Made by a program: the position numbers and the translations under genes | Virus record (IMG/VR): IMGVR_UViG_3300024259_001623 | Source of the DNA: a virus | Lineage: Duplodnaviria > Caudoviricetes | Strand: one strand, 5' to 3' | DNA: 64,000 nucleotides | Part shown: piece by piece, positions 5,589-41,574 of the stretch | Numbering within the stretch: position 1 is the stretch's first letter | Layout: each line of letters opens with the position of its first letter | The notes under the pieces: generated by a model | The model's input: the letters and a program-made list of their open reading frames with translations, nothing else | Told to the model about the DNA's origin: nothing | Database searches by the model: none

Positions 5589-5798
5589 TTATCTTCTTTC
5601 GCCGCATTTATCACAGAAATCGCATAATTTTAGTTCGCCGCTATCAGATGACCTTAACTCTTTCCAATTATGATCACATTGATCACCAGTATGATCATAT
5701 TGACCACCAAGAATAGTTGTATTCTTTTCCATTTCCATAACTATTCTATGAGATTCTTGAATAGACTCTTTCGTAATATATTTTTTTTGTTGTGACAT
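5589..5798 (-). CDS. Small hypothetical protein, C-terminal Zn knuckle
   Basis: CDHNW...CDFCDKCG; start adjusted to MSQQKK. Confidence 0.5.
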   Translation of the reverse strand: MSQQKKYITKESIQESHRIVMEMEKNTTILGGQYDHTGDQCDHNWKELRSSDSGELKLCDFCDKCGERR

Positions 5799-5805
5799 AT
5801 TAATA

Positions 5806-6207
5806 TTATCTACTAAGATATTCGTAATGATATACTTTAACCATTTTGCGAATAAAATAAGTTGCATCAAGATGTTTCTGATTACAAGCTTTAAGATCTT
5901 TTTTATAACGACATTGATAACGTCTTCCAGCCTCTTCCAATGTCATCTTCTCTTCTTCTCTCTTCTCGTCATGAATTTTTTTCAAGGTATCTTTTGCTTC
6001 TTGTTCGTCAGTAAATATTACAGTTTTAGAAGTTAGATAAGCTCTATTACAATCTACATGAGAACCTTGACCAGGGCCACCGTCGCCACTCCAATCAGAT
6101 TTCCCATCTCCACTATTATAAACATCAAAACCTATGAAACAATTTCCGCCAGAATAACTTATTCTCTTAATGGCATAGTAAACCTTATCTTCATCGTTAT
6201 CGGACAT
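5806..6207 (-). CDS. Hypothetical protein (same paralog family)
   Basis: VIFTDEQEAKDTL. Confidence 0.6.
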   Translation of the reverse strand: MSDNDEDKVYYAIKRISYSGGNCFIGFDVYNSGDGKSDWSGDGGPGQGSHVDCNRAYLTSKTVIFTDEQEAKDTLKKIHDEKREEEKMTLEEAGRRYQCRYKKDLKACNQKHLDATYFIRKMVKVYHYEYLSR

Positions 6208-6227
6208 TTTTCATCTCCTTAAAGAAA

Positions 6228-6267
6228 GCCGGTAGCAGGAATCGAACCCGCAACATCTGACTTACGA
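6228..6267 (-). pseudogene. Orphan 3' half of a tRNA-Thr(CGT)-like gene
   Basis: T-CGT-AA-GTCAG-ATGTT-GCGGG-TTCGATT-CCTGC-TACCGGC directly after the HNH stop; no 5' half nearby. Confidence 0.7.
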
Positions 6268-6272
6268 TTCAT

Positions 6273-6833
6273 TCAATAACTTTGACCATTTTTATATCTA
6301 TTTCGTCTTTCATGGCGCCCATTACCTCTATTTTTTCCTTTATACGTAGGTAAAAGCATATCACAGTTACCACAAATCAAACGTAAATTATTCACTCTAT
6401 CATCATAAGGATTTCCATTTTCATGATCTAAAACTAATGGCATGGGTTTTCCGCACCACTCATCTCCACCACAGATTTCACATTTGTTTCCATTTTCTTC
6501 TTTTAAATATTTTTTTATTGTCGGCGACGAGCTATTAATAAATTTTTTATTCTTTTTAACTTCTTTTTTGTATTCTTTCCATTGGTATTCCTGGTGACAA
6601 GAACAAGAACAGTATTTAGCATTTATTGTTTTTCTCTGACAATTAATACATTTCTTAGTAGCGTATTTCCCAGTTGAAAAATTTCTAGTCACACCTTTAT
6701 TGTTATGAGTCGCGGAACAAGAATGAGAACAAAATTTATTTTGTTTTTTATTATAAGGTATATCTTCTTCACATTCTTTACATTTTTTAGGATTTTTATC
6801 GTATTCTTCTTTTGTTTTTTGATGTTTTTTCAT
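6273..6833 (-). CDS. HNH endonuclease (putative homing endonuclease)
   Basis: CEICG...LVLDHENGNPYDDRVNNLRLICGNC; N-terminal Zn fingers. Confidence 0.88.
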   Translation of the reverse strand: MKKHQKTKEEYDKNPKKCKECEEDIPYNKKQNKFCSHSCSATHNNKGVTRNFSTGKYATKKCINCQRKTINAKYCSCSCHQEYQWKEYKKEVKKNKKFINSSSPTIKKYLKEENGNKCEICGGDEWCGKPMPLVLDHENGNPYDDRVNNLRLICGNCDMLLPTYKGKNRGNGRHERRNRYKNGQSY

Positions 6834-6917
6834 AACTCGAACTCCAAAGTAGTATAAATTTTACTGTCTACTTTAGTATTCAAGTCCTATACTAAAATTC
6901 CTTTTATTTTTCTAAAA

Positions 6918-37262: not shown

Positions 37263-37937
37263 CTACAACCTTTCGGTCAACCATCCTTTATGATTTTTTC
37301 TTTCTCCATTTGCAACTTTTATCATATTTGATGGAGTTAAATTATGTTCTTCACAAAAAACAGATAGACCATTTTCTGTTATAAATATATTTCCATCTGG
37401 ATCAGTCACTTTATATTTTTTAATATTTATTTTTCCTTTTGAAGTTTTACTACATTTAATTCTTGTTTCCGGCTTTGTAATTCTTTTTTTTCTAGCAATA
37501 CTTAAATTCTTTTTATGTTTTTTAGAGAACTTCATTCCTTTTCTAGCTTCACTCATTTTTTTACGAGATTCTATTGAACGTTTTTGGCCTCTTCTTTTTT
37601 CAGCAGCTTTTTTTTGTATTTCCGGAGTTAAACCTTTTCCTCCTTCTCCACCGTTTGCTATGTTGCACATTTTAAGACCTTCTTGTCTAAATTTTGCAAT
37701 ATAGAATATTTCTCTGTCATCTACCTCTTTATCATTAAGGTCATTTTCCAAAACTATAAAATCAAAATCTCTACCCTCTTTCCATAATTTTCTTATTTTA
37801 TTTTGTAAATGATATCTACGTTTATAGGATTTAGCATCAGACCTATGATGCCTCATTCTATTATAAGTATTATTAGTTTTTCCAACATAAAAAATTAAAC
37901 GAGTATCAATTTCTATAAGTGCGTATATTGTATGCAT
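37263..37937 (-). CDS. GIY-YIG homing endonuclease with NUMOD3-like repeats
   Basis: TIYAL...FYVGKT...R...H; REIFYI; NIANGGEG. Confidence 0.88.
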   Translation of the reverse strand: MHTIYALIEIDTRLIFYVGKTNNTYNRMRHHRSDAKSYKRRYHLQNKIRKLWKEGRDFDFIVLENDLNDKEVDDREIFYIAKFRQEGLKMCNIANGGEGGKGLTPEIQKKAAEKRRGQKRSIESRKKMSEARKGMKFSKKHKKNLSIARKKRITKPETRIKCSKTSKGKINIKKYKVTDPDGNIFITENGLSVFCEEHNLTPSNMIKVANGERKNHKGWLTERL

Positions 37938-38690: not shown

Positions 38691-39617
38691 TTACCATGTT
38701 TTATATGCGTCTTTAATTATTTCCAAACTTTCTGAACTTCTTAAACCATAATTGGAACAAGACAAATCAACCATTTGTTTTCCATCGCAATAAGAAGACG
38801 GTCCTGCTTTGCATTCTACAGCATCAATATACATCGAAAATTTACCATCTTCTGTATCGAACAAACGATCAGGAATATCCGCCTCAAGTATCTGCTCTTC
38901 ATAAGTATAAGCAAGAACAGTATCTATTGACAATCTAGGAAGCTTTTCGCTTTCCTTGAGTTCTTTACAAATCTTAATCCAATTGTCGTTGTTTTCTGGA
39001 GTATAACTCGATCCTCTACCACTTTCTTTATATCCTAGCAGAGTAACTCCATAATATAGTTCATGGGCTTTTTCCAGTATCTCTTTTAAATCATGCTCCG
39101 AAGCAGAACCCATAACATAATGCAACTGCTTACAGAGTCTTTTACCCCAATAAGGATTGCTCTCGATACCATTGAACACCATGCATGATTCTAAAAGCTC
39201 AATATCTTCAACGCATTTAACTGAAAAAGCAAATGAACCACAGTTTTCTATGATGCCGGGCCATTTTCTAGCGTCCCTCATCCAATCCATAGATTTTGTA
39301 GTAAAATTAGGAACAACTCCTTGTTTCCTAAAAGCTTTCAGAATATCAACAAAATCTGGATGGCTAGTTGGTTCTCCACCACCTATTGCAACTTCAAATA
39401 CTCTCATTTCCTGCAATATATAAGCTATGTTTTCTATTGTATTTAAATCTGCATGACTTCCTTTAGTATCAGAATTCTGATAACAATTATGAACAAGAAT
39501 ATTATTTGCAAAATAATTATGTTCTGGAGTAGTTCCGATATTATAAACTTTACCTTTATAAGGGATCTTTTTAACAGATTTAACTTTTATTATGAACTTC
39601 GCCTTGTTAACTTTCAT
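38691..39617 (-). CDS. Split-intein C-fragment (44 aa) fused to C-terminal part of a radical SAM protein
   Basis: ...VYNI...HNYFANNILVHN/CYQ then AIGGGEPT-x-HPDF, VPNFTT. Confidence 0.9.
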   Translation of the reverse strand: MKVNKAKFIIKVKSVKKIPYKGKVYNIGTTPEHNYFANNILVHNCYQNSDTKGSHADLNTIENIAYILQEMRVFEVAIGGGEPTSHPDFVDILKAFRKQGVVPNFTTKSMDWMRDARKWPGIIENCGSFAFSVKCVEDIELLESCMVFNGIESNPYWGKRLCKQLHYVMGSASEHDLKEILEKAHELYYGVTLLGYKESGRGSSYTPENNDNWIKICKELKESEKLPRLSIDTVLAYTYEEQILEADIPDRLFDTEDGKFSMYIDAVECKAGPSSYCDGKQMVDLSCSNYGLRSSESLEIIKDAYKTW

Positions 39618-39636
39618 CTTTTTAATCCTTCTTTCC

Positions 39637-40596
39637 TTAATGTCTTTGAAAATCTACTTTTTTATGACAACTAACGCAATAAGTAATCCCTATTGCATTT
39701 TTATGTTCTTCTATAATTTGATCATTCACCCGTTCAAACTCTTCATAACTTAACAAATCCATTATTCTTCCATTTAATATCTTTTCTACAATATTTTGAA
39801 AAGTTGGACTTATATGATGAACTTCTAGACGACCTCCAACTGATCCACATTTACAACAGGTAAAATCATCTCTTTCTAAAATAGGTCTTATCCATGCCTT
39901 ATACAACCTAGATCGTATAACTTGACACCTATCCCTATTTCCTTTCCATAGATGATGATTTTTACCCCTGATATAAACAATTTCACCACTTTTAACTCTT
40001 CTTTTAATTGTTGCTTTTACTTTTGCGACTACATCTTTACGCTTCATAGGATTCTTTTCACCCTTCATCTTGTCAGACGCAAAACTAGAAAATTCTTCTG
40101 GAGTCATTCTTGTTACAGGCGTTTTAATTTTTTCATAATCATCGATATTAACTTCTTTTTTCATAAAAGTGGACGCCATCTTTGCCCTGACTTCTTTTCT
40201 CTTCATTGGATTATTTTGTTTCATTCTTTGCGAAGATTTTTTGTTATTTCCTTTTTTACAGATATCACATACATTGATATCAAATTCAGATAAAGTTTTT
40301 GTTTTCTTTTTTACAACTGTTTTTATAAATTTATTACACTTGCGACATTTCAAATCAATATTAATCTCTTTAAAATTATGAATCTTAATGTTTTTACAAT
40401 TACCACATAAAACTTCGTTTCTTTTACCTATGAATTCTTTATTACAATATTTACATTTTTTTGTTTTATTTTTTTTATGATATTGATCATTTCTTTTTTG
40501 TTTTTTACATTTTTCAGAACAATATTTTCCATTAGTTTTGGCAATAAATTGTTTTTTACATTTTCCGCAATATGCTATATGTCCCATAATGAACAC
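39637..40596 (-). CDS. HNH endonuclease between split-intein halves
   Basis: ILERDDFTCCKCG...LEVHH...ITYCVSCHK; NPMKR repeats; N-terminal Zn fingers. Confidence 0.85.
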   Translation of the reverse strand: MFIMGHIAYCGKCKKQFIAKTNGKYCSEKCKKQKRNDQYHKKNKTKKCKYCNKEFIGKRNEVLCGNCKNIKIHNFKEINIDLKCRKCNKFIKTVVKKKTKTLSEFDINVCDICKKGNNKKSSQRMKQNNPMKRKEVRAKMASTFMKKEVNIDDYEKIKTPVTRMTPEEFSSFASDKMKGEKNPMKRKDVVAKVKATIKRRVKSGEIVYIRGKNHHLWKGNRDRCQVIRSRLYKAWIRPILERDDFTCCKCGSVGGRLEVHHISPTFQNIVEKILNGRIMDLLSYEEFERVNDQIIEEHKNAIGITYCVSCHKKVDFQRH

Positions 40597-40650
40597 TCCT
40601 TTAAACGAATATATGTATTTTATACATTCGCTAACTTAAAAAAGTATCCT

Positions 40651-41574
40651 TCAAAATTTTAAAATATGATCATTTTCTTCAATATTTTCTGCTTTTATCC
40701 AGCCACGATTTAAAGTATATACTTCATGATTCGGAGTCAATTTAATTTCTGAGCCATCTTCTGCTTCAATAACTATTAAATCACCTTCATAATCTCTTTC
40801 AAAGATTTGTTCTGTAACTAATTCAACTCTTTTTTCTTCTTTATTATTATATCCATAAACTATATCATTAATCTTGATATCTTTTATAGCAACTTCTCCA
40901 TCTGGAGTTAAGATCATAGTCTCTGGGACTAAACAGAATTCGCAACCCTTGTCGCACCAATTGGTTATCTTCAAATCAACCAATTCAGGCGATGAAGATT
41001 TTGTATATTCTTCTTTAGTATCTTCAAAAGAGAACTTTACTTTCCCGCCAGTTTTTCTATTAAAAATAACCCACCAGATTCCATCTTTTCTTGCGATAAC
41101 ATCATCGTTGTGAAAATCCGTTTCCAATGGAAGTCTAAATGCTTGACCTTGATCAGTTAATGGATGACTCTCATCAGAATTATCATTACCACCTAAGATA
41201 ACCAAATCTTCTCTTAGCATATATTTTTTGAAATCTGCGAAAAATTCCTCATCAAAATAATCGCCTTTCCAATTAGTAGGAAGAGCTAAAACACTTTGAT
41301 GGTCAATATAAGCAGTTGTCGATTCGATATCAAGACCTGTAACTTCCTTTACAACCAATCTGGCGACTTTATCATTAAAAATATCTCTTAAATTATTGAA
41401 TAACGTAAGAGACAGATAATCTCCTTTAGATTCTTCAGAAGCAGCAGTAAAAAATCCCCATCCGAAATCTCCATCCGTAGCCATGTGATCGTCAGATATT
41501 CCATCTAAGAAAATCAACGAATGACTTGAGCTACTGTTAGTCGCTAAACCCAATCTTACTTTTGCTATATTCAT
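40651..41574 (-). CDS. N-terminal part of radical SAM protein fused to split-intein N-fragment (94 aa)
   Basis: ATNSSSSHS domain; ...ITNWCDKGCEF/CLVPETMILTPDG...LTPNH (intein blocks A and B). Confidence 0.9.
   Translation of the reverse strand: MNIAKVRLGLATNSSSSHSLIFLDGISDDHMATDGDFGWGFFTAASEESKGDYLSLTLFNNLRDIFNDKVARLVVKEVTGLDIESTTAYIDHQSVLALPTNWKGDYFDEEFFADFKKYMLREDLVILGGNDNSDESHPLTDQGQAFRLPLETDFHNDDVIARKDGIWWVIFNRKTGGKVKFSFEDTKEEYTKSSSPELVDLKITNWCDKGCEFCLVPETMILTPDGEVAIKDIKINDIVYGYNNKEEKRVELVTEQIFERDYEGDLIVIEAEDGSEIKLTPNHEVYTLNRGWIKAENIEENDHILKF

Follow-up and report, generated by a model that had tools for sequence, protein, structure and literature searches.

The window of this study is the 64,000-nucleotide (nt) stretch of phage DNA IMGVR_UViG_3300024259_001623, in which all positions are counted. 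Between 38691 and 41574 it carries what is very probably a fractured gene of a radical S-adenosylmethionine (SAM) enzyme, whose two parts bear the halves of a split intein and enclose the gene of a probable HNH endonuclease. The listing of open reading frames (ORFs) with their translations gives three co-oriented genes here, the N-half, the middle ORF and the C-half, all on the minus strand. The N-half (41574-40651) codes for 307 amino acids (aa) and consists of a 213-aa radical SAM N-extein (40936-41574) with the C-terminal end ITNWCDKGCEF, and of the 94-aa N-terminal intein part, IntN (40654-40935, N-half residues 214-307), which starts with CLVPE and contains TPNH; its stop codon is at 40651-40653. 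The ATG of the N-half overlaps the stop of the upstream gene (TAATG). The free-standing middle gene (39637-40587) codes for 316 aa. Its ORF can be extended to a GTG at 40596; the ATG at 40587, with the AAGGAG ribosome-binding site 8 nt upstream, is the most likely start. The C-half (39617-38691) has 308 aa and is composed of the 44-aa C-terminal intein part, IntC (39486-39617, C-half residues 1-44), which ends in HNYFANNILVHN (ILVHN), and of a 264-aa radical SAM C-extein (38691-39485, stop included), which starts with CYQNSD and contains GGGEP. It has a separate ATG with an AAGGA-type ribosome-binding site, 19 nt past the HNH stop. On re-reading of the ORFs, all coordinates and sequence features that the first-pass annotation had given for the split gene were confirmed.

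Both intein parts were recognised by curated profiles. The N-half passes the NCBIfam model intein_Nterm (TIGR01445) with 47.6 bits against a cut-off of 24.5, the C-half passes intein_Cterm (TIGR01443) with 20.4 bits against 15.6, and the Pfam profile Intein_splicing (PF14890) is covered in two complementary pieces, positions 11-93 by the N-half and 121-155 by the C-half. The block A nucleophile Cys1 directly follows the N-extein (CEF/CLVPE, the slash marking the junction) and is kept in about 93% of 40 family IntN sequences in the family alignment. The block B motif TxxH is found as LTPNHEV and is conserved across this alignment, while block G shows the penultimate His, the terminal Asn and the +1 Cys (ILVHN/CYQ). 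In the family, IntN measures about 94-102 aa and IntC 35-44 aa; the first nine residues of the window IntC form a lysine-rich N-terminal extension compared with the family norm of 35 aa. A custom IntC hidden Markov model (HMM) matches the window IntC with E 2.4e-20. The net charge was recomputed as -12 for IntN and +8 for IntC, the same values as counted earlier. Among solved inteins, the nearest in sequence include two from fractured genes, NrdJ-1 (E 5.5e-11) and gp41-1 (E 4e-7). With the catalytic residues Cys1, TxxH, HN and Cys+1 conserved, the element is best classed as a class-1 mini-intein split at the canonical endonuclease-insertion loop. The profile passes, these residues and the location of the halves on separate ORFs bear out the claim of a natural split intein made in the first-pass annotation.

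In the CxxxCxxC motif the intein separates the F codon from the C codon, i.e. it lies between the second and third Cys, and the N-extein supplies the first two. An uninterrupted homologue of 476 aa, gp146c, is present in Salmonella phage Arash, and the tblastn pieces of both window exteins abut there. The N-extein aligns to gp146c residues 1-214 and the alignment of the C-extein begins exactly at the third Cys; gp146c reads DWCDLACKF-CYQDST where the spliced window product would read NWCDKGCEF-CYQNSD. As gp146c is continuous across the junction, the intein is placed between the second and third Cys and Cys+1 is the third cluster ligand. This alignment agrees with the earlier proposal that the Cys+1 of CYQ would serve both as splicing nucleophile and as third Fe-S ligand.

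The radical SAM identity of the host is seen in both parts. The C-half passes Pfam Radical_SAM (PF04055) with 31.3 bits against a cut-off of 29.5 and its extein matches phrog_16999 (E 9.4e-28), while the N-extein is matched by a custom HMM with E 2.5e-86. The radical SAM motifs are CDKGCEF plus C once spliced, and GGGEP. The model of an intact homologue (P0008) has a predicted local distance difference test score (pLDDT) of 86.9 and a radical SAM fold resembling SuiB, SkfB, viperin and MoaA. No NCBIfam model for a host subfamily reached its cut-off, and the searches with NCBIfam, PDB profiles and Foldseek against PDB and the AlphaFold database (AFDB) gave only generic radical SAM similarity for the host function; in the same searches no fold was assigned to the N-terminal domain of about 190 aa. 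The record of Arash labels its copy 'methyltransferase'. The N-terminal domain carries an NSSSSHS motif in the window N-extein, and in the family it shows the invariant motifs R-x-G-x-A-x-N-S-S-S-x-H (including N-S-S-S-x-H) and G-x-N-D-N. The host radical SAM family comprises 2,912 cluster representatives at E 0.001 or better. In one IMG/VR phage (L019:1258-2615, plus strand) the NSSSSHS domain has an ORF to itself, followed downstream by a short N-half made of N-extein and IntN; this domain is therefore found apart from the radical SAM core as well as fused to it.

The C-terminal part of the middle protein is an HNH core (CxxC...LEVHH...CxxCH...D); the protein also has two NPM(K/H)R motifs similar to NUMOD3 and three Cys4 units resembling zinc ribbons. 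A match to phrog_1271, a family with the annotation HNH endonuclease, has E 7.6e-15, and the middle ORFs of other cassettes are homologous to the protein over the full length (E 2e-59). Across 11 HNH homologues C244, C247, H257, H258, C304, H308 and D312 are invariant and C307 is kept in at least 90%. Weak tblastn matches to annotated HNH genes of cultured phages were also observed. On motif and PHROG grounds the middle gene is assigned as HNH with moderate confidence, and the motifs together with the phrog_1271 match uphold the earlier placement of an HNH gene between the intein halves.

The 63-nt spacer separating the IntN stop from the HNH start forms an RNA hairpin (40591-40649, minus strand) with a folding energy of -21.7 kcal/mol (z -4.08), a stability equalled by 1 of 200 shuffles, and the 3' arm includes the AAGGAG ribosome-binding site of the HNH gene. 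Four of five other cassettes also have a hairpin in this position, L002 (z -5.5), L014 (-4.1), L018 (-3.1) and L012 (-2.9), while the spacer of L013 shows no such hairpin. The hairpins of the different cassettes are unrelated in sequence. By masking the ribosome-binding site, the hairpin would damp translation of the HNH gene; the ribosome-binding site of the IntC gene is unstructured. Sigma-70-like promoters at the locus were counted at the shuffled expectation. The TATAAA in the hairpin loop resembles a T4 late promoter, which is offered as an idea only.

The fractured arrangement is not confined to the window. Searches with the halves recovered split alleles of 37-47% identity, about 40 as N-halves and 20 as C-halves, along with more than 200 intact homologues of about 460-500 aa; the metagenome search proposed in the first-pass annotation thus revealed a common split allele. 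Full cassettes with a homologous HNH gene are present in L002 (460 kb), L012 (341 kb), L013 (85 kb), L018 (65 kb) and L076, and the three-gene layout repeats in homologues which are only 35-45% identical. Scanning of IMG/VR with the HNH alignment and then with custom HMMs revealed the cassette also in radical SAM genes with short N-exteins, including a SPASM-domain family (L014) and L015, L016, L019 and L021. Wherever the N-half is present, the insertion is always at CxxxCxx/C. As judged from sequence, the IntN-HNH-IntC cassette occupies this site in at least two radical SAM families. One locus (L022:2968-4499, plus strand) has an HNH gene and a radical SAM C-half with IntC, and no IntN within 3 kb upstream; its N-half may be displaced or lost.

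Other intein types occupy the same insertion point. Contiguous mini-inteins of 131-135 aa were found in P0224, P0225 and P0229, and inteins of 333-342 aa in P0242, P0258 and P0265, with a LAGLIDADG domain detected in P0242. The window IntN and IntC tile the mini-inteins at 56-59% identity (59% between IntN and the N part of the P0224 mini-intein), and the split lies in the loop which connects blocks B and F. The N-extein tree joins the mini-intein allele P0224 and the split allele P0223 as sisters (99% support), and in it the intein-less P0170 is nested among the split alleles P0022 and P0028.

The mobility of the cassette is evident from the comparison of its copies. Between L002 and L018 the identity is 90% for IntN, 81% for HNH and 97% for IntC, while the exteins share only 50% and 56%. 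The synonymous divergence (dS) of this pair is 0.5-0.9 in the cassette against 1.5 in the C-extein and saturation in the N-extein. The ratio of nonsynonymous to synonymous divergence (dN/dS) is 0.115 for IntN, 0.115 for HNH and 0.017 for IntC, and about 0.24-0.28 for the exteins. An empty site (L075) and a fractured one (L076) lie in phage DNAs of 91-97% identity, set apart by a precise insertion of 1,260 bp at TAC/TGC; of the sequence downstream, the first 60 nt contain 13 mismatches and each of the eleven 60-nt windows that follow contains 0-4. Split alleles are patchy on the N-extein tree, with 23 changes, at least 6 of them forced by well-supported branches. The identity, dS and dN/dS of the cassette relative to the exteins, the L075/L076 insertion and the patchy tree together show a cassette which travels as one unit and whose three parts, nuclease included, stay functional under purifying selection. 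The three genes are separately translatable ORFs. The window cassette itself is a deep lineage, its IntN being 36-52% and its HNH 31-38% identical to those of other cassettes. Just downstream of the radical SAM gene, L076 has a second insertion of about 1.24 kb with a 371-aa ORF (5749-6864, plus strand) which has no counterpart in L075, where the surrounding DNA is 96-97% identical.

Near the window cassette, a free-standing GIY-YIG homing-endonuclease gene (37263-37937, minus strand) is situated three genes downstream, just before a NAPRTase gene. It matches Pfam GIY-YIG (E 1.1e-09) and phrog_314 (E 2.2e-25) and is a second mobile nuclease in the gene array of the cassette. Beside the L002 copy the 172-aa gene upstream of the N-half has no conserved counterpart, and it thus pointed to no partner.

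The window locus was compared with known systems. Fractured genes with split inteins, gp41-1, NrdJ-1, NrdA, IMPDH-1 and others, were described by Dassa, London, Stoddard, Schueler-Furman and Pietrokovski in 2009 (PMC2677866). As in that work, the host gene is broken in place with its parts in the same orientation, the split intein is cut at the canonical endonuclease-insertion point, a free-standing endonuclease gene with a 5' hairpin lies between the halves, IntN is acidic and IntC basic, and the DNA is aquatic and phage-like; hairpins at the 5' region of the endonuclease were likewise seen in the fractured genes of 2009 (PMC2677866). The window intein is also detectably similar to the NrdJ-1 and gp41-1 inteins of this type. 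The 26 loci of 2009 had GIY-YIG or Vsr-like endonucleases and hosts of DNA synthesis or repair, and fracturing by HNH was only predicted (PMC2677866). In contrast, the window has a radical SAM host, a break inside the Fe-S motif and a probable HNH endonuclease with zinc ribbons. The endonuclease type and the DNA synthesis or repair host are traits of the 2009 sample and not of its definition of a fractured gene.

Similar layouts were observed in other phages. In the cultured T4-like Salmonella phage S16 (NC_020416; L077:1814-4540) the UvsW helicase gene is fractured into gp114 with IntN, gp114.1, and gp115 with IntC. It shows the same three-gene layout and its IntN is about 40% identical to the window IntN, but the host is a helicase and the middle gene has no detectable similarity to the window HNH. 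The middle product gp114.1, composed of NUMOD3 and a TnsA/Vsr-like part, is annotated as hypothetical and the halves only as 'DNA helicase'. A second fractured gene is found next to the radical SAM one in the 460-kb phage contig (L002:1639-4422, plus strand), where the order is a DEAD/ResIII helicase N-half bearing IntN, an endonuclease of NUMOD3 plus TnsA/Vsr-like type, and a Helicase_C half; at the same position in L012 the DEAD/ResIII helicase gene is one intact ORF of 485 aa. The nrdA gene of phage Aeh1, split by the HNH endonuclease MobE (Friedrich et al. 2007, as cited in PMC2677866), resembles the window in having a free-standing HNH-type gene between the halves of a phage enzyme gene, and expression of the Aeh1 endonuclease is regulated. 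It differs in having no intein, as its halves assemble non-covalently.

Inteins in radical SAM enzymes were also compared. The reviews PMC3922620 and PMC10663303 describe for the MoaA intein of Pyrococcus abyssi (Callahan et al. 2011) a redox trap formed by a disulfide between Cys-3 and Cys1. The window intein has the same CxxC1 geometry (C-E-F-C1) in a radical SAM enzyme, the insertion site of MoaA being taken as the same from its Cys-3/Cys1 description alone. NCBIfam holds two models of intein-containing radical SAM proteins, NF038136 (Rv2578c family) and NF045703 (Tes), and the NF038136 profile spans the extein-intein junction of the window (residues 207-300 corresponding to profile positions 69-162). 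Unlike MoaA, NF038136 and NF045703, which are contiguous, cis-splicing and located in cellular genomes, the window intein is split, phage-borne and accompanied by a free-standing HNH gene. In the literature searched on split inteins, radical SAM, phage, HNH and metagenomes this arrangement is not described; a paper on Campylobacter phage IBB_35 mentions both inteins and radical SAM, but in different genes. The novelty suggested in the first-pass annotation is thus retained for a fractured gene combining a radical SAM host with HNH, while contiguous inteins were already known in such hosts.

Taken together, the locus is, with high probability, a genuine fractured radical SAM gene carrying a mobile IntN/HNH/IntC cassette of about 1.3 kb in a marine jumbo phage, in which the halves would trans-splice and the cassette would home. 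In this proposal the tails of IntN and IntC, being acidic and basic, associate and fold into a HINT domain. Trans-splicing would then yield a protein of 477 aa (213 + 264) with contiguous cluster Cys (CDKGCEF-CYQ) and the predicted tryptic junction peptide GCEFCYQNSDTK. As the three cluster Cys are contiguous only once spliced, the activity of the enzyme would depend on splicing. The HNH would cleave intein-less alleles in co-infecting phages, and repair would copy the whole cassette in.

Several points weigh against this proposal. Each half alone misses the PF14890 gathering cut-off of 35.8 (33.0 and 26.1 bits), while the contiguous relative P0224 scores 55.2 bits. An aspartate in block F is conserved in Npu DnaE, gp41-1 and NrdJ-1. 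In the window and in all 20 family IntC sequences this residue is Asn (KVYNIG) and not Asp; the contiguous relatives at the same site carry Asn too, and some cassettes of other radical SAM families retain the Asp. Prediction of the IntN and IntC complex gave an ipSAE of 0.57 against 0.01 for the best control, with partner pLDDT of at least 67 and agreement of the runs in at least 95% of contacts; the mark was attained in 51 of 78 solved complexes and in 2 of 108 mismatches. The prediction is weakly consistent with binding of the two halves and may echo solved split inteins known to the model. We infer trans-splicing of the window halves from their sequences. For the middle ORF, the Pfam scan gave no HNH model at E 0.1 or better and Foldseek with the full HNH model gave nothing significant; a profile search of solved structures with the HNH alignment also returned chance-level matches only. 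Residues 217-316 of the AlphaFold 2 (AF2) model (pLDDT 75) aligned by VIA-align to the SciA HNH endonuclease of phage T5 with a Z of 6.9, which falls in the range the tool calls common (root-mean-square deviation 3.4, 90 aligned residues), and to other HNH enzymes with Z 3.2-4.0. No close intein-less allele of the window gene was found in the N-extein tree, the nearest N-extein being 52% identical, and this gap leaves homing by the window's own copy putative.

Among the alternatives, it appears unlikely that the intein halves no longer splice and act as a non-covalent zipper which holds the enzyme fragments together, in the manner of the fragmented NrdA of phage Aeh1. The change of the block-F Asp to Asn in the whole family would suit such a loss, and functional enzymes encoded by genes in pieces without splicing have a precedent in the discussion of PMC2677866 and in PMC3045599. 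However, the contiguous relatives P0224, P0225 and P0229 must cis-splice for any enzyme to be made and yet carry the same Asn. Cys1, TxxH, the terminal HN and Cys+1 are kept despite the IntN identity range of 36-52%, the cassette dN/dS of 0.02-0.12 is a tighter constraint than a zipper requires, and the third cluster Cys would be behind a 44-residue tail, apart from the other two.

That an invading endonuclease gene killed the radical SAM gene and left a decaying pseudogene with intein-like remnants as flanks is very improbable. In its favour, the host enzyme is without known function and the cassette is missing from many related phages; but in every examined copy, however deeply diverged, the three ORFs remain intact, each has its own start and ribosome-binding site, and dN/dS is about 0.24-0.28 for the exteins and 0.02-0.12 for the cassette parts.

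The assembly of the window was compared with other data. The stretch is present in 20 seawater metagenome runs, with no RNA run among those listed, and an identical C-half was found on 22 contigs, the longest of 434,625 bp. In the eight places shown, from JGI, ENA and Logan assemblies, the layout, stops, spacers and starts are the same, and the locus is whole in six. Both boundaries, IntN/HNH and HNH/IntC, are crossed with zero differences by contigs of runs X7 and X8, neither of which is flagged as a possible source, and contigs of four runs show no differences from the window. A read joint which skips 39662-40739 was rejected, its only basis being a match of 21 nt in contigs that belong to other organisms. 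Megablast of the locus against the phage GenBank collection gave no DNA-level match. The 434,625-bp contig and the lack of such a match therefore point to an uncultured marine jumbo phage as the source. Protein searches of the 50,697 phage GenBank records returned no IntC match, no N-half match joining a radical SAM N-extein to IntN, and no full-length match to the HNH protein. An artefact of assembly or gene calling, in which sequencing errors would have split a contiguous intein with nested endonuclease (an assembly error was the refuting case named in the first-pass annotation), is hardly conceivable even with contiguous inteins known at this exact site elsewhere (mini-inteins, and others of 333-342 aa, one of them with a LAGLIDADG domain detected), since independent assemblies from three sources agree over the 22 contigs, the middle gene is differently arranged with a 63-nt spacer bearing a hairpin and ribosome-binding site, and the layout recurs in distant homologues.

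Within the fractured-gene reading, it can be speculated, by analogy with the MoaA trap and with a low chance of being right, that trans-splicing is conditional on redox state or Fe-S supply; the intein would then be a split intein of a naturally conditional kind. Before splicing, Cys1 of the intein and the two extein Cys of the N-half would form a decoy CxxxCxxC, and a disulfide or a bound cluster on the precursor would gate the first splicing step. The oxygen-labile radical SAM enzyme would then be assembled only in a reducing cell, and the family-wide block-F Asn could belong to such tuning.

The fractured layout itself has been known since 2009 and contiguous inteins in radical SAM enzymes are also known; what the papers searched do not describe is a fractured radical SAM gene with a probable HNH endonuclease. 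It widens the fractured-gene layout beyond enzymes of DNA metabolism to an Fe-S radical enzyme, and to the HNH type only predicted by Dassa and co-workers. The sister pairs at one site, mini versus split and empty versus split, bear on the origin and spread of split inteins. The dozens of diverged Cys1/Cys+1 split inteins are candidate orthogonal ligation tools. The junction coincides with a cluster ligand and shares its CxxC1 geometry with a known redox trap, which opens conditional splicing to direct test, and the interest of the system would be higher if this geometry makes trans-splicing redox-conditional. From the sequences gathered here, the window locus appears as one member of a well-populated, mobile family of HNH-associated split inteins in uncultured phages, which targets the cluster motif of radical SAM enzymes.

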